This document shows positions 1-64,000 of a stretch of 64,000 bases of DNA, one piece after another (position 1 is the stretch's first letter; each line of letters begins with the position of its first letter). The position numbers and the translations under genes are program-made. Source of the stretch: a virus (taxonomy: Duplodnaviria > Heunggongvirae > Uroviricota > Caudoviricetes). The stretch lies in the IMG/VR virus record IMGVR_UViG_3300035521_000566; one strand, 5' to 3'. Below the pieces are notes generated by a model, which worked only from the letters and a program-made list of their open reading frames with translations, searched no databases and had not been told where the DNA came from.

Positions 1-3000
1 ACCATGCTGTGACAGCCACTGCATTTCAAACTTAACAGTTGCACTGTTCTTATCAGTATTACCATTTGCTCTCTCTTGCTTAATAAAGTCCTTACGAGCA
101 GCCATCTTAGCATAATGGTAATCCTGTTTTTCGTTCCAGTCAGCTTCAAAGTCTGCACGAGACATACCATAACTACGAGCTCTTGCCCACGCATTATCTT
201 CGGCTTCCTGATTTGCAGCTGCAATGTTCTCTTTCTTATTCTCAGATGCTCTGAGCTTTCTACCAGCTTCAAGCATTGCTTCTGGAAGTGGAGGATTTGC
301 TGATGCTTTTCTCCATTCGTTTGCAACATCAGTCAATGTCTCACGACGAATGTCGCTGTTATAACTCATATATCTATGCTGTGCTGCTTCTGCTAACTCG
401 GTATCCGTAAGAGCAGGTGTTTCGATATAATCGTGCCAGCTCTCAATGAATTCTGAAACAGCCTTAGACCTAGCCTCATCTGAAGTAGGCTCATCAGCAA
501 GCTGTGTGTCAAGTGCTACAATTGCAACAGAGTCACCATCGAAGTCACCATCGTAACCCTTATCCATAACAGGGTTAATAGCTACACCTACAAGATTCTC
601 GTCAACTTTTACGTGAAGATAACGAACACCAGCATCACGAAGAAGCGGGTCACGCCATACCATGACGCCGTCGCCCTCTTTGACACCAATTGCTTTTGCC
701 ATATCAGCACCGATTGCGACATCCTCGATGTTAAGTCGAGGGTCCGCTGTCCATACTGCAGTAGCTGAACGTGGCAGTGTATTCGTCATCATCTCGGATT
801 TGAAAGCATTATACTTGCTGTCAAACTTGTGCTTTATAATGTCACCTGTAATCTCGTCAAATGCACGCTGTGCACGGCTTCTACTCGTTTCCATTGTCTG
901 TCTGGCTTTCTCTTTATCAGCATCGCTTATATTAGAACTGAGCTTTCTTTCAGCGTCAATATATCTTACTGCGTGCTCATAAATTGTAGCATATTGCTTT
1001 GTGTAATCATGAACACTCTGGGTTCCATCTTCGAAACGTTGTCCGCTTCTCAGATAAGAACTAAGCACTGGTAAACCGTAAGATACTTTTGGCTCACCTG
1101 CAACTGTAGTCTTTGACTTGCTGCCTTCCAGTAAATCTTTATTACGATGAGCTTCAAAGGTCTTTCCATTACGTGTAACAGTCCAAGACTCTTTGTTGTA
1201 TCGAATCATCTTCTCACCTGGAACCTCGATTTCAGTTTCCTCTACCAGACGAGGAATCATTCCGCCGCCTTCAGGAAACTTTAATGGAAATGGAAGTTCC
1301 AAAAAACCACCCTTCTTACCAATCTCTTTGATAAAATCATTCTTAGATTTACGAATATCAAGAGATGTGATAGGTGCTTTGGCATTCTTTCTAACAACAG
1401 TCTTATACTGTGGTTCTGGCATTGCAAAGATATGTCTGCTCTCACCATTATGAGGCTCATAACTATCTTTGATATGACCTGTCTCATCCATATCAAGACC
1501 GCATACAATCATATACTCACGCATATTCTGGAATGCACGGTCGTTATCTGAATAAAATGACTTCTTAATTGCGACAGAACCTTTGGAATCCAAGCCCCAT
1601 CCTAACTGTGCTGATGCAGAACGTCCATTGCCTGCGTCAAACTCAGCTTCGTCATAGATATGAGTCTTCTCATCAACCGTCATATGAGTAACAATAAAAC
1701 GTGCTGTTCCGATAGAGCCTGGAAGTGTCTCGCCCGTTTTAGGATTTACCATATCATGAGTTTCCTGTCTACACTCCAGATAAGAACTTGCATTAAAACG
1801 ACCTACAGCAGCAAACGGAGCACCAACAACCTGAACATCAGGATTTGCTTCAAAGAAGTCATGAACTTCTGCAAGACCTTGCTCCTCTGCTTCTTCTCTT
1901 GTCATAGAAGTGTCGTATATCAGTGGGATAACACCCTTATTACCACCGAAGTCAAGAATCTTATCACCGACCTTCATCGGTCTCATATTACCATCATGGT
2001 CACGAACTGGATTCTCTCTTGCAAACTTATCAGTAACAACGAATCCATCATCAAAGTTCCAACCGCCAAGCGTCATCTGTGCCATCTGAATTGGTTCAGA
2101 CACTTTTTGTGCCTTCAGCAAGTTATTGAATACCATCTGACGTCTATCAAATGGAACATTGTCAGAGAACTGCATATACGGATGCAAGAACAATGCTGTT
2201 CTATCGTCCTTATTATCACTCGGAATAATATGTCCATCCATATCAACTTTGGCACCCTGAACCAGGTATCTTGTGATACCCTGTGTAATACCAGTTGATG
2301 TAGCATCTTTATCAAAGTAGCCATCGCTTTCTTCTGATAAGATTGCCATATTACGTCCGCCAGTAAGTGTCAATGCATCAGAGTTTAAATCATCAACTAA
2401 TATATATGGATTCTTTGTGCTCTGATAAGAAGCATTCAAGGTAGCACCCTCTTTGAACTTCTTGCCATAACTTACACGAGAAGCCTCTGTCTCAAGAATT
2501 GCTTTACGCAAATCATCATCCATACCCTCTTCTCTTGTAATCTCTACATAATCCACTGGATGCCTTACATCGTAGAGCTGTCTGTAAACGTGATTCAAAG
2601 AAGTAGTCTCACCACGAGGGGCTCCTTCGTATCTTGCGAACTCTACAAGCATATCTTTTTTCACATGAGAACGAATAGCTCTAGCCATATGCTGCTCATA
2701 ACCATCAAGTCTGGTTCTTTCTTCAAGAGAAAGATTCTCACCAGGCTTTTGTGGCAGAATTGTTGCTGTATAACCAGGAACGAACATATAGTTATCACCG
2801 TTCGCAAACTTTGTGATAACTCCAGGATATTCTGTTTCAGGAGCAAATATCTGTCCAATATAGCCTGTCATCTCAACAGTATCAAGACTTGCTTTACCTG
2901 CGTCCGCAACAGTCTTATTCTTACCGACTGCCTGTCTTACTTTATACTGAACAACTCCGTTCTCATCAATCAGAATGTCTTTATCTTCAACATAACAGCC

Positions 3001-5049
3001 CGATGTCTGCAATGTATTCTTGATTTCCTCGTTCATCTGACGAATAAACTTACTGGAGTGACTGCCCATTACGGCAGCAGTCTTATCATCAAACTTAAGC
3101 AAACGATTCTTAATAACGCCCGCATAGTAATCACTGCCCTTCATTTCTTCAGAGGTGATACCTGCCAAATCCATAGCGACAATCATTGTGTTATTGTTAT
3201 AATCAATTGACTGCTCCGTATCCATAAAGCTCGATACTCCGACAGGATTGAAACGCTTACCATTTGCATCTGGCTCATACTGACCAATGTTGGCGTCTAC
3301 GCTATCGGCTGCGTGCTGATGAATCTGCTCAACGATAGTACCCTGATAATACTGTGGTGCATCTGATTCTTCATCAAAACGTGAAACCTCGGTTCCAACA
3401 ACTGGAAGTGAAATTTCGCTGATGTCAGATGCCTCTGTAGTAAGAGCATACCAGTATTTCTTTTGGATACCTGCAATATCCTCATCCATAGAATAAGGAT
3501 ATACATAATCAGCGTCATCCCTATGTGCTTCTGCCTGAGCAATCATATCTTCAATGTTGAGTGCGTCCAAATAATTTGTTCTTGCACTCTGAACTGCATT
3601 CTGAAGATAATTGATTGCGTCATCTTTCGGTGATACAGCTTCAGTTGTCTCAGTTGCACGAACACCAAACCACTGTGTTCTCTCTGCTACCGCAGGAGAA
3701 ACAGTAATATTGCCTGCCTTGTACAAATTACCGTTAGCTGCATCATACTGGAATGTTGCATGACCGCTATTACTTGCATAATAAGCTGTATTTGATGCAA
3801 CATAACTGTTGGTATTGCTCTTCTTAGAAACAACTACGTCTGGCTGTCCAACCATCGGAGCACGCTCTTTATTTAATCTGTTCTGATTTATCTTCTCGAC
3901 AGGAATACCCTGCGTAAAGTGAATCAAATCCATAACATTCTTTGCTGTAGCCTGATACGGCTGTGACTCATAACCGCCTGAATTTGCAGGTTTACGCTCA
4001 TCAGTCGAGAATCTGTAATTCATGTTATATGCCATTACTTTGCCAAAGTTAAAGCCAAAGTTGGAACCAGCCTGAGGAACTACAGTAACATTAGAACCAT
4101 AATCATTCAATCTGGCAATCAACTCACCTGAATCACGGCAATAAACACTATAATCATATCCTTCTTCGCTCATCAGTCTAAGTAACTCTGCTGACTGTCT
4201 AAGCTGCTCTTTTGTAGGACGTGTACCACTATGAGCTCTTACATATATATTACGAATATTGCTATATTCGTCTGATGATAAATAAGGCTTGAATGCAGCA
4301 AAACCAGTAACATCATCTATATCATAAAATGGTACAACATTTTTCACTGGATAACTGCCATCAGCTAATGAACCATATCGCTTCGGCATATCGTTCCAAG
4401 ATTTTGCACGACCTCTGTACATATATATGTTAGATGTAACGCCTGTCGGCTGAGCATACCACATACCAACCTGCTCAAACATAGACTTATCTACATAGAG
4501 AATTTCAGAAGGATTCCTTAAGAATGCACTTCTGTCCTGAAATGTCTCGTCATATGGTGATAACGGAATAAAATCTGTTAAACCGTTATTGTTTGACATA
4601 CGGTGCGACTCAAACATATTTGTAGTAATGTCCTTATATGTAGCTTCTGAAATATTTGCTTCTGGAAATACTTCGTTTAGAGTGGCAAGTATCTCAGAAG
4701 TACGATTGTTTGCCTGAGCGACAACGTCTGCATCGGCTGAAGAAAGTGATGCTAAAATATTCGGTCCTGAAAAAGAAAGAACAGCATCATCGTTAAAATC
4801 GAAATGCTTACCCTTCGCAGTGTATGCACGCAACGTATTCAAATATGACTTTGTTGCTGGTTGTTCTCTCAACTTGTTAATCCATTGACGGCGAATATTA
4901 CGAGCTTCACTTACAGTAATAGGTTTCTGATGTGCGTCTAAACGCTGTTCATTAACCTTTTGCACAGCCAACGCAAAAACATACTCGTTTGCCATTTTCT
5001 GATATACATTTTTGCTTGGAAGTGCATCATAAGATTTGTAATCTGACAT
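1..5049 (-). CDS. giant multisubunit-RNAP-like protein (fused beta / beta-prime homolog), N-terminal 1683 aa; ORF continues beyond window start
   Basis: ATG at 5049-5047 with SD AAAGGAG ~8 nt upstream. Hand translation found no in-frame stop down to nt 1. Motifs KVGDKILDFGGNKGV (nt ~1929-1970; cf RpoB GDKxAGRHGNKGV), ARFIVTHMTVDEKTHIY (nt ~1660-1710; cf RpoB LKLHHLVDDKMHAR), VMVWRDPLLRDAGVRYLHVKVDENLVGVAINPVMDKGYDGDFDGDSVAIV (nt ~531-700; cf RpoC NRAPTLH...NADFDGDQMAVH). Confidence 0.6.
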   Translation of the reverse strand, partial: MSDYKSYDALPSKNVYQKMANEYVFALAVQKVNEQRLDAHQKPITVSEARNIRRQWINKLREQPATKSYLNTLRAYTAKGKHFDFNDDAVLSFSGPNILASLSSADADVVAQANNRTSEILATLNEVFPEANISEATYKDITTNMFESHRMSNNNGLTDFIPLSPYDETFQDRSAFLRNPSEILYVDKSMFEQVGMWYAQPTGVTSNIYMYRGRAKSWNDMPKRYGSLADGSYPVKNVVPFYDIDDVTGFAAFKPYLSSDEYSNIRNIYVRAHSGTRPTKEQLRQSAELLRLMSEEGYDYSVYCRDSGELIARLNDYGSNVTVVPQAGSNFGFNFGKVMAYNMNYRFSTDERKPANSGGYESQPYQATAKNVMDLIHFTQGIPVEKINQNRLNKERAPMVGQPDVVVSKKSNTNSYVASNTAYYASNSGHATFQYDAANGNLYKAGNITVSPAVAERTQWFGVRATETTEAVSPKDDAINYLQNAVQSARTNYLDALNIEDMIAQAEAHRDDADYVYPYSMDEDIAGIQKKYWYALTTEASDISEISLPVVGTEVSRFDEESDAPQYYQGTIVEQIHQHAADSVDANIGQYEPDANGKRFNPVGVSSFMDTEQSIDYNNNTMIVAMDLAGITSEEMKGSDYYAGVIKNRLLKFDDKTAAVMGSHSSKFIRQMNEEIKNTLQTSGCYVEDKDILIDENGVVQYKVRQAVGKNKTVADAGKASLDTVEMTGYIGQIFAPETEYPGVITKFANGDNYMFVPGYTATILPQKPGENLSLEERTRLDGYEQHMARAIRSHVKKDMLVEFARYEGAPRGETTSLNHVYRQLYDVRHPVDYVEITREEGMDDDLRKAILETEASRVSYGKKFKEGATLNASYQSTKNPYILVDDLNSDALTLTGGRNMAILSEESDGYFDKDATSTGITQGITRYLVQGAKVDMDGHIIPSDNKDDRTALFLHPYMQFSDNVPFDRRQMVFNNLLKAQKVSEPIQMAQMTLGGWNFDDGFVVTDKFARENPVRDHDGNMRPMKVGDKILDFGGNKGVIPLIYDTSMTREEAEEQGLAEVHDFFEANPDVQVVGAPFAAVGRFNASSYLECRQETHDMVNPKTGETLPGSIGTARFIVTHMTVDEKTHIYDEAEFDAGNGRSASAQLGWGLDSKGSVAIKKSFYSDNDRAFQNMREYMIVCGLDMDETGHIKDSYEPHNGESRHIFAMPEPQYKTVVRKNAKAPITSLDIRKSKNDFIKEIGKKGGFLELPFPLKFPEGGGMIPRLVEETEIEVPGEKMIRYNKESWTVTRNGKTFEAHRNKDLLEGSKSKTTVAGEPKVSYGLPVLSSYLRSGQRFEDGTQSVHDYTKQYATIYEHAVRYIDAERKLSSNISDADKEKARQTMETSRSRAQRAFDEITGDIIKHKFDSKYNAFKSEMMTNTLPRSATAVWTADPRLNIEDVAIGADMAKAIGVKEGDGVMVWRDPLLRDAGVRYLHVKVDENLVGVAINPVMDKGYDGDFDGDSVAIVALDTQLADEPTSDEARSKAVSEFIESWHDYIETPALTDTELAEAAQHRYMSYNSDIRRETLTDVANEWRKASANPPLPEAMLEAGRKLRASENKKENIAAANQEAEDNAWARARSYGMSRADFEADWNEKQDYHYAKMAARKDFIKQERANGNTDKNSATVKFEMQWLSQHG

Positions 5050-5081: not shown

Positions 5082-5110
5082 ATTATATATCCATATATGG
5101 AGATTGTCAA
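5082..5110 (-). promoter_or_regulatory. class A promoter: TTGACA-ATCTCCATATATGGATA-TATAAT, drives the giant RNAP-like gene
   Basis: Exact -35 and -10 consensus with 17-nt spacer read on the minus strand; start codon 33 nt downstream. Confidence 0.6.
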
Positions 5111-7621: not shown

Positions 7622-10600
7622 TTATTTCGTCTTGACCTGCTTTACATTTGACCAGCTGCCATAAACTTTCTGACCGTTAACTGTCTTATATGCTCGAACT
7701 CTCACATAATAAGTCGTCTTAGCCTTAAGGTTCTTAATAGTAACCGATGTGCCTGTTATTGCTTTCTTACCTGGCAATCTCATATTTGACTGAGTAGAAT
7801 ACTCTATCTCGTATCCTGATGTACCAGACACTTTATCAAACGAAACCTTGAACTGCTTTGCACCAGCCACAAGCTTGACATTTGCAACCTTTGCCACATT
7901 TATCTTAGACCACTTAGCATACACAGTGATATTGCCAGTGCTTCCCTTTGTAACATTGGTAAGTCGCTTGGTCAAAGCCTTATCAGTATACCAGCCTTTG
8001 AACTCATATCCATATCGTGTTGCTGGATATAATGTAAAGGTCTTTGTATCCTTTGTGTATGATGTTAAATTAAGTGAATTGTTCTTGGTTCCACCATTTA
8101 ACACATAAGTTATGCTGTACTTACCAGAAGTCAGCTTTGCAATTGTCTTAGTCTTAGTTGTTCTGCAAATATTGCATGTGTAGGTCATAATACCAGTCGA
8201 TGACTCTGTAGCCTTCTTTGTGACCTTACCGCTATTCCACTGATGAGTGCTCAACTTTACAATACTCTTACCATTTGAAATCAGCTCACCACAGGTTTTG
8301 CAATATGTATCACCTGTATAGCCTTCGGACTTACATGTAGCATCAAACTTATTCCTAATTTCAGTAGATGCGTGCTTGCATATTACTTTCAATTTTGAAA
8401 TACTCTCTGTATAAGTGTCACCACAATTAGAACAAGTAAATGTTCTAATGCCTGCAGACTCTGTTGTAGCCTGTACGGTAACAACATCGGTGTAAGTATG
8501 TCCTAATGCTTTAATAACTGTTCCAGTTGTTAAAATTTCGTTGCATAGCGTACACTTTATATCGCCTGCATATCCGTTTTCAGTGCAAGTAGCACCTTTT
8601 ACATTTACAATCTCTGTCTCAGAATGAACAGCTAACTTAGGTATCTGAACATTCTTCACAGTATCGCAATTGAGACACTTGCATGTTATTACACCAGAAG
8701 CTTTACAGGTAGGTTCTGTTACAACAGTACCATCATCCCATATATGCTGCAGCTTAGCAATATTTGCTGTCTTCTGCTCTCCACATATAAGACAGGTATA
8801 AAGCTTTGTACCATACTCGCTACAAGTAGGCTGTGACGCTACTCTTGAAACATAAACACAAGTGTGTTCTTCAATCGGAGTGTCGGGTTCAGGACTCTCT
8901 GATTCTGATGGCAACTTTGCAACTTCTTCGGTCTTAGTAATCTCACATACTGCACAGGTATATGTCTTAATACCTGTTGATGTTGTTGTAGGCTGTTTTG
9001 TGATTGAGCCGTTGTCCCAAGTATGAGTAGTAAGCTTTGCAATAGACTCTGTTCTTGTATCATGGCACTCGCTACAAGTGTATGTCTTAACACCAGCCTC
9101 TTTGCAAGTAGCTTGCTTTGTAACCTCGCCAGCATTCCAAGTATGTGCTGAAGCATCTACTGGAACTTCTTCGGTCTTTGTCTCATTACAACCTGAGCAA
9201 TGATAAGTTCTAACACCCTTCTTTGCACAGGTAGGTTCTGCTGTAACGGTACCACTGTCCCATGCGTGCTGATGTGTCAACTTTGCAACGGACTCTGTTT
9301 TTGTTGTACCACATACAGTACAAGTATATGTCTTAATACCTTCTGATGTCTCAGTCGGTTGCGTAGTAACTACGCCGTTGTTCCATGTATGTTCTGTTAA
9401 CTTAGCTATCTGCTCTGTCTTAGTTGTCTTGCAAACAGCACAGGTGAAAGTCTTTATTCCGAAATCCTTGCATGTTGACTGTGTAGTAACTATACCATCA
9501 TCCCAAGTATGATTTACTTTTGAAATAGCAGTTACTTCAGTCTTAGAATCACATCTGGAACAATGCTTTGACTTTGAGCCTTCTTGGCTGCAAGTAGGTT
9601 CTGTATCAACCGTAAATTCAGTTGAATAATCATGACCCAAAGACTGAATATCTTCAGTTGTGGTAGTATGACAAACAGTACATTCCTTCGTCAAAATACC
9701 GTTATCTTCACAAGTAGCTTCTTTCGTAACGGTACCTGAGTTCCAAGAATGAGTAGTCAGCTTCGGAATAACAGTTACCTCAGTCTTAGAATCGCATGAC
9801 ATACAGTGCTTTGATTTTGAGCCTTCTTGATTACAATTCGGCTCTACATCAACTGTAAAATCACTTGAATAATTATGCTCTAACTTCGGAATATTGTCTC
9901 TTGTTTCTGTTGTGCCACAAATCGTGCAAGTGTAAGTTGTCTGACCATATGCAGAACAAGTTGCTTCTCGTGTCACTTCTCCATCATTCCAAGTATGCTC
10001 ACCAGTAGCCGATATTTCTTCGGTCTTAGTAATTCCACAGATTTCGCAAGTATAAGTTCTTAAGCCAGGCTTACATGACGGTGTCACCGTAACCTCACCA
10101 TCATTCCACTTATGACCTGTATGCGTAATCACTTCAACTGTAGCAGATGAACAGCCTTCGTTTGAACACTTAAACTCTTTATAACCATCTTCTTCGCATG
10201 TAGCATCAACAACATCGCCTGCTATTGTATAATTATGCAACGTGCTGTCAGCTGGAATAACTTCTGTATAAGAGTGTCCACAATCACAATAATAAGCCTG
10301 TGAACCTGTTTTAAAACAAGTTGGATTTACAGTAGCACCCTTATTATAGTTATGGACTTCATAACCCTCATATAAAGTGATACTTGCACGATTATTATTC
10401 CAATCATCTAAGTCAAAAAGCGTTGTACGAGCTTCATCTGTATACCACTTCGTAAAGTGATATAATTCGTTGTCTGCAAAATCAACAGTAGGAAATTCTG
10501 CATTTCCGTCAATAGTAAATGATGCAGACTTGTCATATTCAGAATTAGAGTCTGATGAGTCTTTAATCAAGACACCTGAATTACCTTCAGCATCATTTTG

Positions 10601-13384: not shown

Positions 13385-13588
13385 TAGGTAAGAATTTGAA
13401 GTTATCTCTATCTTTTCCCCTGCTCCACACCGTGCATGCGACTTTCACCGCACACGGCGTTCCATCACATTTCTGTGACTTGTGTCCATTCCTACTTCTC
13501 TCATTACAAGAGCTATCATCAGTTCGAACACTACTTTTCAATATCCATTAAACTGCTTATTATTCTTCGTCAGTAAACAAACCTGAAT

Positions 13589-50518: not shown

Positions 50519-50594
50519 TGGAGCTTTTGGGAATCGAACCCAACTGTTTTCCTGCTTGCAAGGCAGGTGACCACCCCTTGCAGTCCCAAACCCC
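50519..50594 (-). tRNA. tRNA-Ala (anticodon TGC) with G3:U70 identity pair
   Basis: Acceptor GGGGTTT/AAGCTCC (G3-U70 wobble), anticodon stem CCTGC/GCAGG, loop CTTGCAA, T-arm TTGGG-TTCGATT-CCCAA. Confidence 0.5.
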
Positions 50595-50602
50595 ATATTA
50601 AG

Positions 50603-50675
50603 TGGCTCGTGATAGTTTCGGGCTATCGACACTTTGGGCTTCAACCAAATGCTCTACCATCTGAGCTAACGAGCC
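50603..50675 (-). tRNA. tRNA-Phe (anticodon GAA) with unusual T-loop CCCGAAA
   Basis: Acceptor GGCTCGT/ACGAGCC, D-stem GCTC/GAGC, anticodon stem TTTGG/CCAAA, loop TTGAAGC, T-stem GATAG/CTATC. Confidence 0.5.
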
Positions 50676-50726
50676 AGTTTTATTTAGTTTAACTTATTAT
50701 CAGGTGCCTGTTCTGATAATAATCAG

Positions 50727-50799
50727 CTCCCACAACAGGGTTCGAACCTGTGACATACTGGTTAACAGCCAGTCGCTCTACCTACTGAGCTATATGGGA
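50727..50799 (-). tRNA. tRNA-Asn (anticodon GTT)
   Basis: D-arm GCTC-AGTAGGTA-GAGC, anticodon stem ACTGG/CCAGT, loop CTGTTAA, T-arm ACAGG-TTCGAAC-CCTGT. Confidence 0.55.
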
Positions 50800-55686: not shown

Positions 55687-55738
55687 CAATAAAATATATT
55701 TTAAAGTGTGCTATAGGTGTGTCATTCATAGCACAAAA

Positions 55739-55778: not shown

Positions 55779-56486
55779 TTAGATTTCAGCCTGTGCCTGT
55801 GCCTCATTTGAAACCAAAAGATTATTATTTAATCTCTGAGCGTCTTGCTGCATCTTAGACTTATCAACAATATTCTTTGTTTCAGACTTAGAACCTATTG
55901 CTGTAGGCTCAGGCATATTATTAAGCTTATTTTTATTATTTGAAAGAGCTGCACCGATATTTTGTATCGTCTGCTTTGTCTCATTCATAGTCTCAGAAGG
56001 TACATTCTTGATTGAATCAACCTGAGATTTTACATTGTATGCTACGAGTTCGCCACCTATTTTGACCTTATTGTCTAATGACTGACCTTTCATATCATTT
56101 ATTGCACTCACTGTTGCTTTTGTCTGTTCAATTCTTGACTTACAATCCTGCATAGTACCTTTTGCAACGGTTGGAGCCACTTTCGCAAGTGATGCAACGC
56201 CAGAAACCTTTTCGCCTGCTACAATATCTGCAACACCATATGCAACACCTGGTGCTGCTTTTATATTATTGACAGTGCTCTTGGTTCTGTAATTCGAAGC
56301 TTTATCTAAGTGCTTCTTTGTCTTATCAGACAATCCAGATGAATCCTTCTTAGCGAGCTTTTTTTTAGACTTAGATTTATGCTTGGACTTATTCTCATCT
56401 TTTTTCAACTGCTTTTCTCGCTCAGCCATCTCTTCGGGGCTATTACGCAACTGTCTGTTTGCTGCTTTCAACGCTCTTGGTGCCAT
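55779..56486 (-). CDS. Lys-rich protein (235 aa), paralog of 56528..57214
   Basis: Shared G-x-G-(I/V)-A/VKGG segment and C-terminal QDA.RL.-N-L motif with neighbour; terminator 55739-55768 downstream. Confidence 0.45.
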   Translation of the reverse strand: MAPRALKAANRQLRNSPEEMAEREKQLKKDENKSKHKSKSKKKLAKKDSSGLSDKTKKHLDKASNYRTKSTVNNIKAAPGVAYGVADIVAGEKVSGVASLAKVAPTVAKGTMQDCKSRIEQTKATVSAINDMKGQSLDNKVKIGGELVAYNVKSQVDSIKNVPSETMNETKQTIQNIGAALSNNKNKLNNMPEPTAIGSKSETKNIVDKSKMQQDAQRLNNNLLVSNEAQAQAEI

Positions 56487-56527
56487 ATAATCGCTCCTCT
56501 CTAAAATCTTATATCAAAAGCTTTGAT

Positions 56528-57214
56528 TTAATAATCCATTCCTGCCTGATAATCAGGACCCTGCTGAATTTCAAGATTAGATTGTAAACGATTTGCGTCC
56601 TGCACCATCTTATCATACGAAACCTTATTTGTTTCTGTCTGAATCTCTGTTTGTACTTCAGTCGCTTCTGTAGTCTCTTTTGAAAGACCACTGTTCTCTA
56701 GCTGATGACTCTCAATCATTTCTGCCTGCTCATTCTTCAGCTTCTCATCTTCTACTTTTTCAAGTTCCTTACGGTCTTTTCTTAACTCTTTGAAAGTGGT
56801 CTGACCTGTAAGAACCTTGCTAGTATCCTTTACTTTACCCAAAGTATTCTGAATATCTTTCTTAGGCTTATGCTTCAGAGCTTCACGAGATGCATCTGAC
56901 TTGGCTTCGCTATACTCAGCCTTTAACTGAACCTGCTCTTCTTTTGAAAGATACTTTGAATCCTTTTTAAGACTGGCTTTCGCATTCTTCTCAAGTTTAC
57001 GGGCTTGATGTGAATCTTTTACAAGATTAGCACCGCCCTTTACAATTCCGACTGGTCCACCAGTTGCAATCGTAAATACATCGCCTGCTTTGTCAGCACG
57101 CTTCTCAGCTGCCTTCTCCATCTGTTTGCGTGTATTTTCTGACATCTGTACATTAGAATGTTCTACATTTTTATTCTTTAATTTCTTAGCCATTGTAATT
57201 CCCCTTTCAATCAT
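56528..57214 (-). CDS. Lys-rich protein (228 aa), paralog of 55779..56486
   Basis: ORF; class A promoter 57249-57277; SD GAAAGGGGAATTACA. Confidence 0.45.
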   Translation of the reverse strand: MIERGITMAKKLKNKNVEHSNVQMSENTRKQMEKAAEKRADKAGDVFTIATGGPVGIVKGGANLVKDSHQARKLEKNAKASLKKDSKYLSKEEQVQLKAEYSEAKSDASREALKHKPKKDIQNTLGKVKDTSKVLTGQTTFKELRKDRKELEKVEDEKLKNEQAEMIESHQLENSGLSKETTEATEVQTEIQTETNKVSYDKMVQDANRLQSNLEIQQGPDYQAGMDY

Positions 57215-57248
57215 AAAATACTGCTACGTTACATATTTGTATTTATTT

Positions 57249-57277
57249 ATTATATATCCATATATGGAGAATGTCAA
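57249..57277 (-). promoter_or_regulatory. class A promoter: TTGACA-TTCTCCATATATGGATA-TATAAT
   Basis: Upstream of gene 56528..57214. Confidence 0.55.
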
Positions 57278-57385
57278 TAGCATCATTATTTTGATGATGA
57301 AATGTATTTATAACAAAAATAATAAAGCACTTAATTGCAAAAGGGGCGATGCAATCAATGCTTTATTATTATAGTAGATTTTAGA

Positions 57386-58495
57386 TTAGTCTCCCGCCTG
57401 CTTATTATCCTCTGAATTCATATTACTCTGTATGTTTTCGAGATTTGCAGGCATTGTTTTATTCAGTTCTTCGTTCTGATGAACGGCTGTCTGAGTTTTC
57501 TGATTCTGACGGTTCTTACGCTCAAGAATCTTCTTAATACTAAGTGGACCATCAGCTAACGGTTCTGCCTTTTCATCAGACTCCGTATTATCAACAGATG
57601 TATCATTTTCTGCTTCACCTTCTGAAAGTCCTTCACGCATCATACGCTCAAAGTAAGACGCATATTCTTCAGAGTCATTTTCATCATCGTCTAAGTCGAT
57701 GTCTTCAACAATTTTGTTGACTTCATCAATGTGGGCATTATCTTTATCAATATGTTCATCAACACGAGGCTTTGTGATAGAGAAAATATCCTGTCCGACT
57801 TTCTCGCCTTCAGTAAGCTCTCTCTTCTCCTCTGGCTCCTGAACAATCTGTTCTTCCTGTTCTTCTTCCTGGAAGAATTCATCATCAACAAAGTCTTCAA
57901 ACTGCTCTTTCTGAACTTCAGCTTCCTTGAATGGTTCAAGATAGTCTGTCAACTCGTATCCGCAAGTCTCATCTAATGAGATATTATATTGTGTATCAGG
58001 TTGTACAAATATAATAGGCACATCTGAATCTTTCACCATCAGATACGAACACGTCATCGGTAAATCTTCGTAAGTGTTCATATTCATAATATCTGGTGTC
58101 ATAATTGTCTCTGGATGAGAAATCAATCCTTCCTCTTTGTCAGCTACAAATTTTGCAAGCTGGTCTTTATCTGGAAAAATATTATCTGCATACATCTTAG
58201 CAATCTGCCTGTTAGATAGTTCATAATATAATATAACATCAGGCTGGTCAGCTTCTTCGAAGTCGATTGTCTGTATATTCTCTGGGAATTGTCCTTTAAG
58301 ATTTAACAAACGACCTGCTAAGACAATTTTAGGTCTATAACATTCTGTTTCAGTGCCATACTCGATGAAAGTCTGTGTAACATATACGTCTCCCACACAA
58401 GGCACTCCTGACTCATGTATTAACTGTGAATCATCAAGAAATGTTCGAGCCTGACGGGAATAACTATGGTTCATACTATGTCCGCTAACTTTCAT
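57386..58495 (-). CDS. acidic hypothetical protein (369 aa)
   Basis: ORF; Glu/Asp-rich C-terminal half. Confidence 0.45.
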   Translation of the reverse strand: MKVSGHSMNHSYSRQARTFLDDSQLIHESGVPCVGDVYVTQTFIEYGTETECYRPKIVLAGRLLNLKGQFPENIQTIDFEEADQPDVILYYELSNRQIAKMYADNIFPDKDQLAKFVADKEEGLISHPETIMTPDIMNMNTYEDLPMTCSYLMVKDSDVPIIFVQPDTQYNISLDETCGYELTDYLEPFKEAEVQKEQFEDFVDDEFFQEEEQEEQIVQEPEEKRELTEGEKVGQDIFSITKPRVDEHIDKDNAHIDEVNKIVEDIDLDDDENDSEEYASYFERMMREGLSEGEAENDTSVDNTESDEKAEPLADGPLSIKKILERKNRQNQKTQTAVHQNEELNKTMPANLENIQSNMNSEDNKQAGD

Positions 58496-58586
58496 GAATC
58501 AATATCTCCTTTCTGATTAAATTTAGTTGATATATCAACCTTTTTTAAATTATAAACGATTTCTGCTCAAAAATCAACAGAAAACT

Positions 58587-59027
58587 TTATCTTAATTTAC
58601 GACTTTTGTGTGAAGAAAATGACTGAACTTTATTATCGGTTCCATTAAATGCTGCAGCCTTCTCTTCAATCTTTTCGGCATTTTTCTTCATATCGTCTAC
58701 ATTCAGCCATTTCTTGAAAAACTTATAAATAGCAGAATCTATCAGAATAACTAATATTGTGATAATAATTACGGCAGCAAGTGAAGGAAATACCCAAGTA
58801 GTTAAAGCCGTTACAATATCAGTCTGATTTGAAATTTGGGCAATACCAGCTAAGTAACCTGTCGTAAATGGAATAGCACTTACAATTACAGCAGTCGTAA
58901 ATGAATATACAACTATAATTGTTGCAAACCATCGCACAAGCCCTACAAAAAATCGTAGGACAGAACGCTGCTCCTTTAACTTATTCTTGGCGTCAATAAA
59001 CTTCTTTGAAAATTTGCTTTCTTTCAT
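58587..59027 (-). CDS. membrane protein (146 aa, 3-4 TM)
   Basis: ORF; hydrophobic segments. Confidence 0.45.
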   Translation of the reverse strand: MKESKFSKKFIDAKNKLKEQRSVLRFFVGLVRWFATIIVVYSFTTAVIVSAIPFTTGYLAGIAQISNQTDIVTALTTWVFPSLAAVIIITILVILIDSAIYKFFKKWLNVDDMKKNAEKIEEKAAAFNGTDNKVQSFSSHKSRKLR

Positions 59028-59051
59028 AACTTTTAGTCCTTTCGTTTAATT

Positions 59052-59819
59052 TTATAATATACCCTGTATATTTGACAGAATGCCATTATTATCTACAGTA
59101 TATATAATAGTCATCACAGATGTTGAAGAACTGTCACCTACATGAGATATAACTGCAACCCTAGCGATATAAGTATAATCATTGCCAACTGATGATAACA
59201 AATAGCTCTGAGCACCACCAAACTCCATTGTGATGTTGTTCTCATCAATTTTGTTGCCTGTTATGTTAGCTGTTATATCTGTCTGTTCTGCAATTTCTTC
59301 TGAATTTTCCTCAGTCTCAATTGTATCTGATTCTTCAGTTACCATTGTATCAGCAGACTCTACAGATTCTTCTGTGGTCTCACTACCCTGCTCTACTTCA
59401 GTCGCAGGCTCCTCTGTTTCTTGAACAGTTGTAGTCTCAACATTCGGAAAAAACATATTCATAAATGCTGTATCAGGTTCATATGTATTATAAATTGTAG
59501 TCTTAACAGACATATAAGTCTCATATGAATTCCATCCAAGAACTTTATTCATAAATGACTCAAGTGCAACATCGTCACTTTCGTGTCTTACTTCCAGTTC
59601 GTTAATTGCATCATACTTTGTTGACTGCAACTTATTTGCTGCCGTCTGACTTGATTTATCATTCTCATATTTATTCTCTAACTCTGCACATTTTGCTGAT
59701 ACCTCTTTATATTCAGCCTGTACAGAAGCCAATCCAATATGAGGAAACATAATACCTACTAACAATAATGAGATACCTATAATCGCAGGCATTATCGTTT
59801 TAACACTGAAATCTTCCAT
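59052..59819 (-). CDS. membrane-anchored extracytoplasmic protein, paralog family A (with 61217..61828)
   Basis: N-terminal TM; shared motifs E(P)DTAFMNMFFP and C-terminal N-I-Q/K-G-I-L with the family A partner. Confidence 0.5.
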   Translation of the reverse strand: MEDFSVKTIMPAIIGISLLLVGIMFPHIGLASVQAEYKEVSAKCAELENKYENDKSSQTAANKLQSTKYDAINELEVRHESDDVALESFMNKVLGWNSYETYMSVKTTIYNTYEPDTAFMNMFFPNVETTTVQETEEPATEVEQGSETTEESVESADTMVTEESDTIETEENSEEIAEQTDITANITGNKIDENNITMEFGGAQSYLLSSVGNDYTYIARVAVISHVGDSSSTSVMTIIYTVDNNGILSNIQGIL

Positions 59820-59845
59820 GCTTCATCTTACCTTTCTGTCAATTA

Positions 59846-60418
59846 TTAAAGAGCTCCATCATTGCCTTCATAACGGTCTAATATGCCATTACCATTAGCA
59901 TCACCATTATATTCATCAAGACTATCGTCTCCAGATGGTGCATAATATACATCATTATTATTGATTCCATCATTGGCGTTGGCACCGTTATCATTAACAT
60001 TGCTATTTGACGCATTATTATTATTCGATGTACCATTACTATTTGATACTGCATCATTAGCACTGTTAGAATCAGATGTCACTTCATCGCCAAATATGTT
60101 AACACCTCGACCACTTTCAACAGGAACGCTACTATCTTCTGCCGACTCAGATTTTGTTGATTCCTCTGATTCTGATTTCGTCTCTTCTGTTGCTTCTGAT
60201 TTTGTAACATCAGTTGGCTCAGATTCTGTTGCTACGGACTCTGTCGTTTCAGATGATTCCGTTTCTTTTTCTGCCGAGCTTCCTGTAGCTATGTTATCAG
60301 TAGTTGAATCTGTTGTCTTTGCTTTATTTGTAAAAATCACAATAGAACCTATTACAATTACAAGTAAAGCTACTCCACCCATTACCAATACAGGTAAATT
60401 CTTTTTGTTATCGCTCAT
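59846..60418 (-). CDS. membrane-anchored acidic Ser/Thr/Asn-rich protein (~190 aa)
   Basis: Likely start MSDNKKNL (ATG 60418, SD GAAGGAGACGAG); track start 60559 overlaps the upstream gene by 119 nt. Confidence 0.4.
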   Translation of the reverse strand: MSDNKKNLPVLVMGGVALLVIVIGSIVIFTNKAKTTDSTTDNIATGSSAEKETESSETTESVATESEPTDVTKSEATEETKSESEESTKSESAEDSSVPVESGRGVNIFGDEVTSDSNSANDAVSNSNGTSNNNNASNSNVNDNGANANDGINNNDVYYAPSGDDSLDEYNGDANGNGILDRYEGNDGAL

Positions 60419-60440
60419 ATACTCGTCTCCTTCACGATAT

Positions 60441-61199
60441 TTATTGATTATCTTCCACAGTTGTTTCTGTGGTCGTTTCTGCAGTATTATCTGCGTCAAC
60501 TGTTTCTTCAGAAGTATTTGATTCAGCATCGGAAGATGTTGCAGTGTTATCGTTATCAATAAGGTTCAAATCAATCAATTCCTGACCCTGGCTCGTAACA
60601 TAAGAATAAATATCATTGAACTTTCCCAGTTTTGCATCATAAGTTGCTATAGTATAAGCCAAAATTGTAGTGCTACTGTTCTGATAACAAACCCATATTA
60701 CAGGAACCTCGTCTTTATAAAAAGAACTCGTTGTTTTGAACTCCCACTTGTAATAAATATTCGGACAAAAATACCAATCATAAATACCACTGCCGTCTCC
60801 AACATAAGCGGACAAAGCATCATCATTTGTACTCATACTGTCACCATTTTCATTAGTGTTAGCCGTACCATTTAAAACAGATATTTCGATTGACTGATAA
60901 TCATTCTGAATATTTGCTACGCTTACACCACTATCTAATGCTGAATACGAATTATCAGTTGGTGTCTCAACATTAGATAATTCTTCTATACTGACTTCTA
61001 ACTGAGTAATCTGTGCATTCATATTACTTATTTCTGTCTCATAGTTATTTGACTTATTGATTGTACTTAAGACACTGATTATAAAAACTGTTAATCCAAG
61101 AAATGCAATAAACCATATAACTGTCTTGATAATTTGCTCTCTATCCCAGTAATCGGCAAGAGCTTCTTTCTTTTCTTCATCGAACTCAAATAATTTCAT
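60441..61199 (-). CDS. membrane-anchored extracytoplasmic protein, paralog family B (with 61839..62498)
   Basis: Shared core W-Y-(F/H)-...-Y-(K/E)-WEF-(K/E)-T-...-P-V-(I/L)-W-(V/I)-CY-...-ILAY with the family B partner. Confidence 0.5.
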   Translation of the reverse strand: MKLFEFDEEKKEALADYWDREQIIKTVIWFIAFLGLTVFIISVLSTINKSNNYETEISNMNAQITQLEVSIEELSNVETPTDNSYSALDSGVSVANIQNDYQSIEISVLNGTANTNENGDSMSTNDDALSAYVGDGSGIYDWYFCPNIYYKWEFKTTSSFYKDEVPVIWVCYQNSSTTILAYTIATYDAKLGKFNDIYSYVTSQGQELIDLNLIDNDNTATSSDAESNTSEETVDADNTAETTTETTVEDNQ

Positions 61200-61216
61200 A
61201 CTGATAAGTTCCTTTC

Positions 61217-61828
61217 TTACAAAATTCCCTTAATGTTAGACACATTACCATCAGCATCAACAGTATATGTTACAAGAAACGTAATAGACGCTTCTTTTGC
61301 CTCTCCATTTTCCAATATTGAGGATATGCATGTCACTATTGAAAAATAACTATACTCATAACTGGAAGATATGTCTGTTACATAGCTGTTCATAGAATCA
61401 AATTCTAATGTATAACCAAGTGTGTCAATTCGATTATAATTATTTCCTGCACTATCATAATTTACTGGAATATCAGGGAAAAACATATTCATAAATGTCT
61501 CGTCAGGATTATATTTATTTTCGATGTTTTCACGGGCTGCTGAATATTCAGCTAATGAGCTCCATGTAAGTGCTTCATCCAAAAAGTTTTTCATATAATC
61601 GTCATCCTCAGAATGCCGTTCTTCATCAAGTCCTGTAACATTCTGAATTGTGACACTATTAGTCTGGCTATGCTCACTTTGTTTTTCAGATAAAGCTACC
61701 TGCAAATCGTTTACCTGCTGTATCAATTCCTGCTCTTTCGCTTCACTATTGCTTGTCATCGAACTTGAATAAACAACACAGCAAACGCATATTAAACATC
61801 CTATAATTGCTGGTATAAAACGCTTCAT
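61217..61828 (-). CDS. membrane-anchored extracytoplasmic protein, paralog family A
   Basis: Likely start MKRFIPAII (ATG 61828, SD AGGGGGG); motifs DETFMNMFFP ... NIKGIL. Confidence 0.5.
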   Translation of the reverse strand: MKRFIPAIIGCLICVCCVVYSSSMTSNSEAKEQELIQQVNDLQVALSEKQSEHSQTNSVTIQNVTGLDEERHSEDDDYMKNFLDEALTWSSLAEYSAARENIENKYNPDETFMNMFFPDIPVNYDSAGNNYNRIDTLGYTLEFDSMNSYVTDISSSYEYSYFSIVTCISSILENGEAKEASITFLVTYTVDADGNVSNIKGIL

Positions 61829-61838
61829 AATAGACCCC

Positions 61839-62498
61839 CTATTCTTCAATTACTTCGGTTGATTCTGCAATTTCAGTCGATTCATCACTTGCTTCTGATG
61901 CATCTTCTGATGTTTCTTCAGTAGTCTCAGTCGTAGGTGCGTTCTCATTCACAAGTCCGTCTGTGCCTTCAACTGACGCATATCTATATTCGGCACCAAA
62001 CTTTGTGTCTTTGTATTCAACATTTGAAAACTGATTCGCAGCTACGTTATATATACCTGTTGCATAAGCAAGTATGTCATGTGTATCTGTTTTATAACAA
62101 ATCCATAAGACAGGTATACTTTCACCTGAGAACTGATATGCTGTTTCAAATTCCCACTCATAATCAATATAGTCTGCATGATACCACTGTACTCTATCCT
62201 GTGAATCAGTAAAGAAGTCGTCCATATAAAGGGCATGGTCTTTGACTGTATAATCTTCAGTCGGATAGCCCGTAACCTCATCGTATTTATTCTGACCATC
62301 AGCAACAGCTTTACCTAACTCACTGGCATTATTAAGAGTTTCAATAACATATTCAGTTTCAATTGGAGTATCATCAATTTCGTTAATCTGATTCTGTAAA
62401 TCTGTAATCTGTTCCTGCAAAGTATCAATTCGAGATTGAATTTCTGATTTGCTGGTACTTGCATTATTTATGGATGATATACACGGTCTTTTGTCCAT
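61839..62498 (-). CDS. membrane-anchored extracytoplasmic protein, paralog family B
   Basis: ORF; QWYHADYIDYEWEFETAYQF...PVLWICYKTDTHDILAY. Confidence 0.5.
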   Translation of the reverse strand: MDKRPCISSINNASTSKSEIQSRIDTLQEQITDLQNQINEIDDTPIETEYVIETLNNASELGKAVADGQNKYDEVTGYPTEDYTVKDHALYMDDFFTDSQDRVQWYHADYIDYEWEFETAYQFSGESIPVLWICYKTDTHDILAYATGIYNVAANQFSNVEYKDTKFGAEYRYASVEGTDGLVNENAPTTETTEETSEDASEASDESTEIAESTEVIEE

Positions 62499-62632
62499 GT
62501 TGACGCAGTTTCCTGTACAGACTCTTTACGCTGCTCATGTCGTTCACGCATGTGCTCCAGCGTTTCTTGTGCAAGTTTATTAGCTTCTTCTTTCTCACGA
62601 GCCTTGCGTTCAGCTCTTGTTTCTTTTACCAT
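62468..62632 (-). CDS. small basic Arg/Lys/Glu-rich protein (~54 aa)
   Basis: Likely start MVKETR (ATG 62632, SD GGAAGGAGAC). Confidence 0.3.
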   Translation of the reverse strand: MVKETRAERKAREKEEANKLAQETLEHMRERHEQRKESVQETASTWTKDRVYHP

Positions 62633-62759
62633 CTTAAAAGTCTCCTTCCTATATGTCACAAAACATATGACTTACAAATGAAAAACCCTCATTTACGAGT
62701 AAATTATAGCATGTTTACACACTGAAATCAACCATAAATGGGGTTTTTCTAATAATTAT

Positions 62760-64000
62760 TTAATCAACATCTATATTTACATACTTAGAATCAGACTCAG
62801 TCTGAACATTACGATATACATGTCTATAAATATCAGGGAACGAATCCCCACTTAAGTTGGCAGGTCTATCACCATAAGATGCAGAACCAAATACCAAATC
62901 TGAATCATGATATTTCTTAACAGCTTCTTCGCCGATATACATAATAACATGAGCACTACTTAGTTTGCCGTCTCCGTTAACATCTCCATCAACAGCCACA
63001 TCATAAACACCGTCTCCATCAGTGTCACGACCTTCACAATATAGAACTATATCGCCAGGCTGCAAATCATCAATAGACGAACAATCTACTTCTTCCCAAT
63101 GAGGACAAGACTCCAAATGATTTTTTAAATCATATACACCACCAAATGTTACATCATCATCAGCTCCTGACCACAATATAGCATATCCAACACCACGGTC
63201 GCATGAAGCATAATAGTCGTCAGAGATGTCTCTTATTCCTTCTATTGTCTGATGTACTTTAATATATAAATCGGTACCACAAACAATGCCTGCAGGACCA
63301 TTATCAGCACTACCACCTGCTGCCGTATAACTTGCAACAGACTCTTCTCTTGTAGTAAAACAATATGCTGCCATTCTTTCTGCAAGACCATCGCCATAAC
63401 CCTGAACAGTAGAATCCTTACAAGCTGAACTATCATCACTACTTGATGCAGTTTCACCTGACAACTTTGCTGCATCTCCTGCAATTTCTATAATTGTATT
63501 ATAGTAATTTGCATCAGCTGTCCATTCACCAAAATATGCCATATATTCATTAGCTACTGTCTGTCTTGATGTAACATCACCGCTAAATCCTTCCCAACCA
63601 GTTGCAAAATCAGAACAACATTCTGAAGCCGTACTTGGTGCTGATGATGCCCATGAAGCTACCCAATCAGCACGACTATCAACTGAAATCATATATGCTA
63701 ACTGCGTATCCATATCATACCAATTGAGACCAGCATTTTGAGCCATCAAAATTAACTCTAATGCTCTTGGACCTGTCCACTGTCCTAATCCAAGACCACA
63801 ATAATATGCAGTTTGACCATTTGATTCTGTTGCTACATAACCACTTGAATTTACAGACGTTGAACCAGCACCCTGACCCGCTGAAAGACTATAACCATGC
63901 TTTGTTGTACTCGACCCTGTACCAATGTAATAACCATTCAAAAGCAAATTATATGTGTATGTATCTAAGTCGTTAAATGCATTTTGCCATTCATCTGTTC
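62760..64000 (-). CDS. bifunctional cell-wall hydrolase (lysozyme-like domain + C-terminal NlpC/P60-CHAP peptidase), CwlT-like; 5' end outside window
   Basis: C-terminal ASCDRGVGYAILW ... QPGDIVLY ... SAHVIMYIGEE (Cys ... His signature of NlpC/P60-CHAP); N-terminal GLGQWTGPRALELILMAQNAGLNWYDMD lysozyme-like; reading frame open upstream to nt 64000 (track start is a TTG). Confidence 0.6.
   Translation of the reverse strand, partial: TDEWQNAFNDLDTYTYNLLLNGYYIGTGSSTTKHGYSLSAGQGAGSTSVNSSGYVATESNGQTAYYCGLGLGQWTGPRALELILMAQNAGLNWYDMDTQLAYMISVDSRADWVASWASSAPSTASECCSDFATGWEGFSGDVTSRQTVANEYMAYFGEWTADANYYNTIIEIAGDAAKLSGETASSSDDSSACKDSTVQGYGDGLAERMAAYCFTTREESVASYTAAGGSADNGPAGIVCGTDLYIKVHQTIEGIRDISDDYYASCDRGVGYAILWSGADDDVTFGGVYDLKNHLESCPHWEEVDCSSIDDLQPGDIVLYCEGRDTDGDGVYDVAVDGDVNGDGKLSSAHVIMYIGEEAVKKYHDSDLVFGSASYGDRPANLSGDSFPDIYRHVYRNVQTESDSKYVNIDVD

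Follow-up and report, generated by a model that had tools for sequence, protein, structure and literature searches.

A ~208-kb plasmid-like element that combines a giant single-chain RNA polymerase gene with a probable Gram-positive conjugation module

What kind of genetic element carries, in 64 kb, a relaxase and a conjugative coupling protein, a phage-like primase-helicase, its own giant RNA polymerase and about 30 tRNA genes? The question is raised by IMG/VR record IMGVR_UViG_3300035521_000566, of which the 64,000-nucleotide (nt) stretch analysed here is called the window; nearly all of its genes lie on the minus strand. An initial annotation made from the sequence alone called this content chimeric and considered a large conjugative plasmid, an integrative and conjugative element (ICE) or a phage-plasmid. 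Every gene-content item that it listed is found in the window, and profile searches uphold the relaxase and the coupling protein; the term "chimeric" is nevertheless inappropriate, as this set of genes is met again as a conserved module in two phyla. About a third of a ~208-kb plasmid-like element is covered by the window; the element comes from an uncultured low-GC (guanine plus cytosine) Gram-positive bacterium, and we consider it quite probably a self-replicating conjugative megaplasmid-like element that belongs to a poorly described family of Gram-positive plasmids. The conjugative plasmid option is supported by synteny with bona fide plasmids and by a cluster of membrane protein genes, resembling those of type IV secretion systems (T4SS), that continues past nt 64000.

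Source and extent of the element

By exact protein look-ups the window is 100% identical to several independent assemblies, one 47-nt indel aside. It is carried by JGI 3300043109 Ga0484780_000001 (208,395 nt) at about positions 97,878-161,877, and its sequence is also present on JGI 3300035522 Ga0376477_0000002 (184,407 nt), in several Logan assemblies and on a 210,070-nt contig. Relatives include a 209-kb contig (L001), whose polymerase is 57% identical to that of the window, and two further contigs of 243.5 kb and 235.6 kb. In all, ~80 kb of the ~208-kb element was examined, namely the window and its flanks, including 12.5 kb past the window end. A megablast comparison of 24 kb of window sequence with plasmids and phages gave no match.

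The transfer genes

The features that would take part in transfer are the following.

12182..13377, minus strand: coupling protein exon 2, with the TraG-D_C domain
13378..15343, minus strand: group II intron of 1966 nt, with GTGCG...AT boundaries (Rfam)
15344..18515, minus strand: coupling protein exon 1, with two transmembrane (TM) regions, the T4SS-DNA_transf domain and a Walker A motif
18628..20934, minus strand: coiled-coil protein of 768 amino acids (aa) with a single TM helix at the C-terminus, a conserved partner encoded between the ClpB-like ATPase and coupling-protein genes
20946..22739, minus strand: ClpB/Hsp104-like double AAA+ ATPase, 597 aa (AAA_2, E=1e-36; AAA; ClpB_D2-small)
53491..55620, minus strand: MobL-family relaxase (Pfam PF18555, E=2e-55)
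55707..55735, no strand assigned: candidate origin of transfer (oriT) hairpin, an 8-bp inverted repeat flanked by a terminator and the relaxase promoter
55779..62681, minus strand: small, mostly membrane-anchored proteins, including two paralogous pairs (TM prediction, profile search)
62760..64000, minus strand: cell-wall hydrolase, the C-terminal part of an 838-aa protein (TM segment, Phage_lysozyme2)

The relaxase gene had been assigned to the MOBQ family; its product is indeed a relaxase, but of the MobL family. It has the HxH motif (as HVHCH) that marks a histidine-triad nickase, and it is 35% identical to the MobL protein of the Gordonia plasmid pGKT2. The call of a VirD4 coupling protein also holds, with the qualification that the gene is split by a group II intron. 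T4SS-DNA_transf is matched in the frame 15306-18515(-) (E=8e-13) and TraG-D_C in 12182-13384(-) (E=3e-7; both Pfam), and the Walker A sequence, TRAGKGQT, is of the VirD4 type. Between them Rfam recognizes intron domains I-IV (RF02004, 104 bits, 15083-15298) and V/VI (RF00029, 61.6 bits, 13378-13462), and the intron begins with GTGCG at 15343 and ends with AT at 13378. Joining the exons restores ...EQQF-T-LILQTLQQL..., identical to an uninterrupted homolog, and the homologs in two relatives (L029 and L005) have no interruption. The spliced reading frame is intact and encodes a 1455-aa protein with the features of the VirD4/TraG type, 60-68% identical to its counterparts in actinobacterial plasmids and genomes. 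Two separate genes, or a pseudogene, are ruled out by an intron whose clean boundaries restore the open reading frame (ORF).

The intron contains an ORF (13605-14756) for a 383-aa protein with five CxC...SCGC zinc-finger repeats and a C-terminal nuclease-like motif, FIECQGEQH, in which Pfam finds no reverse transcriptase domain. HNH, homing-endonuclease and intron-encoded-nuclease PHROGs were matched in a batch scan that included this ORF and gave no attribution to individual members; the matches presumably belong to it, judging by its motifs. The IMG/VR relative L012 has a homolog of this ORF in the corresponding position, and a DUF4379 protein is present in relative L028. The coupling-protein gene is fragmented in relatives L012 and L016 as well, and the ClpB-like ATPase of the 209-kb relative (L001 1-852; 966 aa) contains a LAGLIDADG domain, probably an intein. 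The transfer genes seem to be hotspots for self-splicing elements.

Homologs of the 768-aa coiled-coil protein are encoded at the corresponding place in pGKT2 and on genome contigs of Actinobacteria; in a Staphylococcus plasmid this position is taken by a 727-aa protein that also has a C-terminal TM helix but gives no tblastn match to it. The neighbouring ClpB-like ATPase is 48-57% identical to homologs from Actinobacteria.

The remaining genes of the cluster may encode parts of a secretion channel. Two pairs of paralogous TM-anchored proteins, pointed out in the initial annotation, are real: 59052-59819 matches 61217-61849 (E=8e-16) and 60441-61199 matches 61839-62498 (E=4e-15), and a homolog of the 61217-61849 protein adjoins MobL in pGKT2. 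The predicted CwlT-like muramidase/CHAP hydrolase retains its lysozyme half (Phage_lysozyme2 only; 28% identity to the pGKT2 lysozyme), while profile search detects no CHAP domain in 62760-64000. Outward from the hydrolase, past nt 64000, follow genes for proteins of 432, 109, 58, 1356, 624 and 316 aa and lastly one for a type IA topoisomerase. With its ~7 TM segments the 1356-aa protein is VirB6-like in terms of topology and domains, and the likeness of the small proteins to VirB8 is of the same kind; its C-terminal fragment, of low complexity and rich in K, Q and A, gave no hit when used to look for homologs. The stop and start codons of the 624-aa (L037 3328-5202) and 316-aa (L037 2378-3328) genes overlap, and their products are 49% and 38% identical to pGKT2 homologs. 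VirB4 and VirB6 homologs had been expected just beyond nt 64000; the VirB6-like protein was found, and in place of a canonical VirB4 there is only a possible degenerate VirB4-like protein (discussed below).

The T4SS of ICEBs1, pCW3 and pIP501 likewise comprise a relaxase, a VirD4-type coupling protein, a VirB6-like protein, small membrane proteins and a cell-wall hydrolase, in a gene order comparable to that of the window. Compared with these systems, the coupling protein of the window is roughly twice as large as usual, with a large loop separating its TM segments; no VirB4 ATPase is recognised, and there are in addition a ClpB-like ATPase and a giant polymerase.

We note that the 47-nt indel mentioned above falls within the transfer cluster, at 62481/62482 (relative to L017 5967-6013), where the ORF is 219 aa long in the window and 280 aa in L017; this may be a variable or phase-variable gene.

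The giant RNA polymerase

1..5049, minus strand: N-terminal 1683 aa of a single-chain beta::beta' RNA polymerase, in an open frame that leaves the window start

The full-length polymerase, read in L021, has 2541 aa, and the earlier description of it as giant is borne out, with all eight catalytic residues intact. Pfam gives a weak match to Rpb1 domain 2 (E=1e-4), and a family profile matches Rpb1/Rpo1N chains in the PDB. When a profile of 152 family members was aligned by hhalign, it matched E. coli RpoC 242-491 (probability 96.6%, E=6e-10) and RpoB 1058-1114 (91.9%) and 711-821 (41.6%), in colinear order. Eight residues are invariant across all two-barrel polymerases (PMC2919709); D1001, K1030, K1038, R1466, P1468, D1502, D1504 and D1506 of the giant polymerase are each conserved in 99-100% of the 152 members, as are the motifs GGWNFDD, GDK...GNKGV, RDP and DGDFDGD. 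Both a beta-type barrel (ED and two-lysine motifs) and a beta'-type barrel (RxP and DxDGD) are present. Because the invariant residues are conserved and the profiles align colinearly, the sequence is that of a probably active two-barrel enzyme, with beta followed by beta' in one chain.

A search of 1.84 billion representative proteins assigned 377 clusters to the family at E<=1e-30, and nearly all of those listed are 1800-2900 aa long. The family has no match in 50,697 phage genomes, and no close relative was found in the IMG/VR viral collection, where six more distant relatives are filed. By tblastn it is present on 13 plasmid records, five from Lactococcus, five from Staphylococcus and one each from Streptomyces, Gordonia (pGKT2) and Rhodococcus fascians. 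Three described enzymes, NCgl1702 of Corynebacterium glutamicum, Orf6 of the yeast killer plasmid pGKL2 and YonO of a Bacillus prophage, likewise have both double-psi beta-barrels and the eight invariant residues in a single polypeptide, and the order beta then beta' is common to the window polymerase, NCgl1702 and Orf6 (PMC2919709). YonO-type enzymes are much smaller and phage-borne. NCgl1702, a 2169-aa beta::beta' fusion of unknown origin encoded by a chromosomal gene (PMC2919709), is likely a member of the same family as the window polymerase. No literature linking a two-barrel polymerase to conjugation was found.

Related plasmids

The polymerase and the coupling protein tend to occur together. 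The close coupling-protein subfamily is encoded on 12 of the 13 polymerase-bearing plasmid records, beyond which the next best plasmids fall to 25% identity, and in most of 16 loci, from two phyla, that were found through the polymerase, the two genes lie side by side or almost so.

Among these plasmids, pGKT2 of Gordonia sp. KTR9 (182 kb) has the same transfer set in the same order as the window element, with pairwise identities of 22-60%. The genes shared in synteny are those for topoisomerase IA, the 316-, 624-, 1356-, 109- and 432-aa proteins, the lysozyme, a TM protein, MobL, the ClpB-like ATPase, the 768-aa protein, the coupling protein (60% identical) and the polymerase (31%). In pGKT2 the order reads topoisomerase, 296-aa protein, then after a gap 835-aa, 1272-aa (polytopic), 143-aa and 461-aa proteins, lysozyme, TM proteins and MobL, and after a second gap ClpB-like ATPase, 866-aa protein, coupling protein and polymerase. 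The pGKT2 cluster is contiguous, whereas in the window element MobL and the ClpB-like gene are set apart by about 30 kb of genes for tRNAs, replication and cargo; pGKT2 also lacks an intron in its coupling-protein gene and has no tRNA gene in the 79 kb examined. Every distinctive gene of its transfer set is annotated as hypothetical, and pGKT2 has been moved by mating into three genera (PMC5640721). The Rhodococcus fascians and Streptomyces sp. NBC_01454 plasmids are related to pGKT2, and all three, unlike the window element, have high-GC actinobacterial hosts. Wherever the flank reaches, the succession ClpB-like ATPase, partner, coupling protein, polymerase is also kept on genome contigs of Microbacterium, Leifsonia, Streptomyces and Candidatus Lumbricidophila, and the coupling proteins of these four genera are 65-68% identical to that of the window although GC content differs.

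Staphylococcus plasmids of 55-65 kb (e.g. NZ_CP150776.1) and Lactococcus cremoris pJM1A, which we take to be the megaplasmid called pMPJM1, are much more distant and have classical Rep initiators. They carry the same polymerase family (24-27% identity) and have the coupling-protein subfamily in common with the window (30-33%). A 55.5-kb Staphylococcus plasmid has most genes of the transfer set, including MobL, the ClpB-like ATPase and the lysozyme, and its polymerase gene lies inside the membrane-channel operon. The conjugation system of the Lactococcus megaplasmid was described by its authors as unlike known ones (PMC6458302).

Promoters shared by the polymerase and relaxase genes

A 29-nt element, TTGACAATCTCCATATATGGATATATAAT, occurs in seven copies in the window, where 0.22 are expected by chance, and in one further variant. 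It is a consensus sigma-A-type promoter (TTGACA, 17-bp spacer, TATAAT) whose spacer contains the palindrome CCATATATGG.

5082..5110, minus strand: sigma-A-type promoter with CCATATATGG operator, upstream of the RNA polymerase gene
7539-7567, 24244-24272, 31015-31044, 34268-34296 and 57249-57277, minus strand: further copies (motif scan)
37948-37976, plus strand: further copy (motif scan)
~12052-12061, minus strand: variant copy (sequence context)

The copies precede the polymerase gene, the operon leading into mobL and several other genes. The element is kept in relatives L001 and L028-L031, including upstream of the RNA polymerase gene in the 209-kb L001, and in L021; in the JGI collection it was found in four stretches, all from one 243-kb relative, and in the IMG/VR viral collection it had no match. 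The family of promoters looks like a regulon under one repressor, and the shared palindrome suggests that a single regulator probably controls the giant polymerase and the relaxase operon jointly; the ribbon-helix-helix protein encoded at 23001-23183 is a candidate for it. Because these promoters are of the consensus host sigma-A type, at least seven or eight of them, including that of the polymerase gene, are predicted to be read by the host polymerase. The unusual autonomy once proposed for the element, with its own transcription, has to be qualified, as the polymerase gene is itself among those with a host-type promoter.

A second palindrome is present about 30 nt upstream of the promoter at 34268. 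Just upstream of the polymerase promoter is a perfect 10-nt tandem repeat, AAAAAGATGC, of 8.1 copies (5226-5306), and by our own coordinate mapping the 184-kb JGI contig ends at about this repeat.

Replication region and tRNA genes

23001..23183, minus strand: ribbon-helix-helix protein of 60 aa, of the RepB/CopG regulator type (Pfam RepB-RCR_reg, E=5.5e-6)
24330..25004, no strand assigned: candidate iteron-type origin, AT-rich and non-coding, with 13 copies of GGTATAGAA and a GC fraction of 0.325
25227-25415, plus strand: MerR/excisionase-type helix-turn-helix protein (Pfam)
25453-27123, plus strand: D5/P4-type (DUF5906) primase-helicase (Pfam)
42197..42934, minus strand: tRNA cluster 1, eight tRNAs and a weak tRNA-Trp
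48242..50799, minus strand: tRNA cluster 2, 22 tRNAs

The 9-bp motif GGTATAGAA has 14 exact copies in the window against 0.49 expected, and all but one of them lie, in both orientations, within 24330-25004. The position of this cluster just upstream of the helix-turn-helix and primase-helicase genes, with a CopG/RepB gene nearby, fits an iteron-controlled replicon, in which the primase-helicase is the candidate replication initiator.

Where about 30 tRNAs had been counted before, there are 31: 30 were found by ARAGORN, and Trp(cca) at 42768-42842 was added by a relaxed threshold and Rfam. Together they serve all 20 amino acids. tRNA genes are also present in close relatives (L030 and L012), and none are found in the fully examined 55.5-kb Staphylococcus plasmid; because of this distribution the array is best seen as an add-on of the large members, outside the core module. 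Similar arrays are known from other plasmids, in that Bifidobacterium breve pMP7017, a ~190-kb conjugative megaplasmid, has a transcribed array of 20 tRNAs beside its replicase gene, proposed by its authors to fit the supply of tRNAs to the plasmid's codon usage, and mycobacterial plasmids with tRNA array units are also comparable (PMC10832533). Unlike the pMP7017 array, the set in the window covers all amino acids. pMP7017 was absent from the plasmid matches for the polymerase or the coupling-protein subfamily, its presence in that collection being unchecked.

Two of the tRNA genes are unusual. The tRNA-like gene at 50430-50500(-), unassigned by ARAGORN and just above threshold in Rfam (29.8 bits), has an 8-nt anticodon loop (gagt) and might be either a decayed copy or a tRNA akin to frameshift suppressors. 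A tRNA-Ile with anticodon UAU (49747-49818, minus strand) is an uncommon species in bacteria; ATA makes up 16.8 per thousand codons in the window genes.

Weighing the alternatives

Even on a conjugative plasmid, the polymerase could be unrelated to transfer. It would then be a resident enzyme that, with the tRNAs, expresses plasmid genes, and its proximity to the coupling-protein gene would be historical, a possibility that we regard as real if somewhat unlikely. A host-type promoter, which the polymerase gene shares with many other genes, and the lack of an export signal in the protein would suit such an enzyme, and so would pJM1A, whose polymerase and coupling-protein genes are ~36 kb apart and on opposite strands. 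Mere history accounts less well for the presence of polymerase and coupling-protein subfamily together in 12 of 13 plasmids, their closeness in most of the 16 loci of two phyla, the placement of the Staphylococcus polymerase gene within a membrane-channel operon and the operator common to the polymerase gene and the relaxase operon. Moreover, the 55-kb plasmids carry the polymerase without tRNAs, so that it is not bound to a large "autonomous expression" package. The proposed role of the polymerase in transfer or establishment is supported by this co-occurrence and adjacency and by the common operator.

Large phages commonly carry big tRNA arrays, and a phage-plasmid or jumbo phage could have its structural genes in the other ~130 kb, use the coupling-like ATPase and relaxase for packaging or replication, and possess the polymerase and tRNAs as large-phage equipment. 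Phages are known to have D5 primase-helicases, ligases, DUF5131 proteins, "tail lysozyme" domains and self-splicing introns, there are phage families of unknown function among the matches of several window proteins (e.g. phrog_12834, E=5e-66), and the six more distant relatives are filed in a viral collection. All the same, we consider a phage improbable. The earlier observation that the window has no capsid, terminase, tail or integrase gene stands (Pfam, PHROGs), and no capsid, terminase, portal or tail family was matched in the 12.5-kb flank either. Structural families are likewise absent from 48 ORFs (39 kb) of the close 209- and 243-kb relatives, and from the 25 of 29 matched families that are listed for 62 ORFs of the six IMG/VR relatives, which instead carry coupling proteins, LPXTG adhesins, dUTPase, NDK, D5 primases and ligase. 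Searches of the viral collection found neither the promoter motif nor a close polymerase relative, the polymerase family is on 13 plasmids and in none of the 50,697 phage genomes, and the plasmids with which the transfer cluster shows synteny (55-640 kb) are not phages. The phage-plasmid option of the initial annotation accordingly finds no support in the sequence seen.

We give as little credence to an ICE or giant genomic island in a chromosome, of which the 184-210-kb contigs would represent the island and its flanks, with the integrase elsewhere. Homologous modules do occur on 150-700-kb actinobacterial draft contigs that are possibly chromosomal, the related NCgl1702 gene sits in the C. 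glutamicum chromosome (PMC2919709), and an excisionase-type gene precedes the primase gene. Against these stand the failure of profile searches to find an integrase or recombinase in the window or flanks, the iteron cluster beside the primase-helicase and CopG-type regulator genes, the near-equal length of independent assemblies (208-210 kb) and the similar size of the 209-kb relative, the lack of a housekeeping gene in any stretch seen, and the fact that the closest isolate-derived relatives are plasmids. An assembly chimera is excluded by the identity of several independent assemblies and by synteny with isolate plasmids, which extends across the junctions.

The conjugative megaplasmid thus remains the preferred reading, and we infer that the element is circular and self-transmissible; the like contig sizes of 208-210 kb in several assemblies hint at a complete molecule. 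Several points weigh against it, or against a polymerase that serves transfer. The negative results for structural genes and integrase cover ~80 kb of the ~208-kb element, and such genes could lie in the other ~130 kb. MOB-suite types the related plasmids as mobilizable or non-mobilizable, pGKT2 being mobilizable, and synteny is looser in pJM1A, with its distant polymerase gene. An AlphaFold model of the polymerase core from a four-sequence alignment was unusable (mean predicted local distance difference test, pLDDT, 41.5), and that the polymerase is exported or acts in the recipient we infer purely by analogy.

A further point concerns VirB4. The large proteins of the cluster have no Pfam match to canonical VirB4 here, in pGKT2 or in the Staphylococcus plasmid, and the C-terminal domain of VirB4 (4AG5) is matched by the 624-aa family at no better than E=0.05, with Walker A and B positions that are not conserved. 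On account of these unconserved motifs we reject the idea of an active 624-aa ATPase; the protein may be a VirB4-derived pseudo-ATPase. Because no cluster protein matches VirB4 in Pfam and the Walker positions of the 624-aa protein vary, the transfer channel is either non-canonical or powered by other ATPases, of which the coupling protein and the ClpB-like protein are the two identified.

A model for transfer

Under the megaplasmid reading, the primase-helicase would replicate the element from the GGTATAGAA cluster, read as an iteron origin. Departure of the repressor from the shared CCATATATGG operator would let the host polymerase express the transfer regulon, including the giant polymerase; MobL would nick an oriT near its own gene, and the coupling protein would pass the relaxase-bound strand to a non-canonical Gram-positive secretion channel. 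The giant polymerase would act in transfer or establishment, most plausibly by priming or transcribing the incoming DNA in the recipient, and might be exported with the help of the ClpB-like unfoldase. The tRNA set and orphan methylases would lessen the dependence of expression and survival on the host.

The boldest form of this model, which we think rather unlikely but worth stating, is that this family of Gram-positive conjugation systems ships a giant polymerase along with the DNA: the ClpB-like ATPase would unfold it, the coupling protein would hand it to a channel without canonical VirB4, and in the recipient it would act on the incoming single strand ahead of the host factors, by priming or transcription, as a conjugative counterpart of the virion RNA polymerase that phage N4 has. 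The N4 enzyme and the conjugative primases Sog and TraC are also polymerases encoded beside delivery machinery that act first in a new host, and a survey of proteins co-delivered with invading DNA lists as RNA polymerases only those of the N4 type, in phages only (PMC5512222). The parallel is one of analogy, as the N4 enzyme is a T7-like single-subunit polymerase and Sog and TraC are Toprim primases, whereas the window polymerase is of the two-barrel type.

Conjugative plasmids are usually thought to rely on the host for transcription and translation, and this family carries its own multisubunit-type polymerase in one chain, with genetic links to a divergent coupling protein, a ClpB-like ATPase and a MobL relaxase. 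Carriers of the polymerase family include plasmids of Staphylococcus, dairy Lactococcus and soil Actinobacteria, in which the combination was previously unremarked. The family may be a blind spot in surveys of gene flow, because typing tools call the relatives non-mobilizable or mobilizable, yet pGKT2 was transferred in matings. The polymerase family itself was noticed in 2003-2010 as an orphan (NCgl1702), and if it were linked to conjugation, it would have a function that can be tested in cultured, genetically tractable hosts. The complete tRNA set of the large members could explain how one transfer module serves hosts that range from 34% to high GC.

Other genes and repeats

7622..11983, minus strand: secreted surface protein, 1453 aa with 59 Cys, a signal peptide, and Flg_new (Listeria-Bacteroides repeat) and fn3 domains
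35520-36299 (N6/N4 type) and 36315-37298 (EcoRI type), minus strand: two DNA methyltransferases (profile search)
40732-41763: DUF5131 protein (profile search)
51872..52894, minus strand: ATP-dependent DNA ligase, 340 aa (profile search)

Profile searches confirm the primase-helicase, ligase, methyltransferases and DUF5131 protein that had been recognized from the sequence. No endonuclease gene is adjacent to the methyltransferases at 35520..37298. The huge Cys-repeat surface protein, also noticed at the outset, has about 20 Cys-containing repeats and is a candidate adhesin. Between its gene and that of the polymerase lies a gene (5370-6866, minus strand) for a 498-aa acidic protein with a lipoprotein-type signal (…LSGCS) and no family match. 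The 465-aa protein encoded at 28497-29894(+) is the one that matches phrog_12834, and has homologs in SPbeta-like staphylococcal, Clostridium and Fusobacterium phages. Finally, a perfect 15-nt tandem repeat of 7.7 copies (45229-45344) lies inside ORF 44798-45613, where it encodes a pentapeptide repeat.

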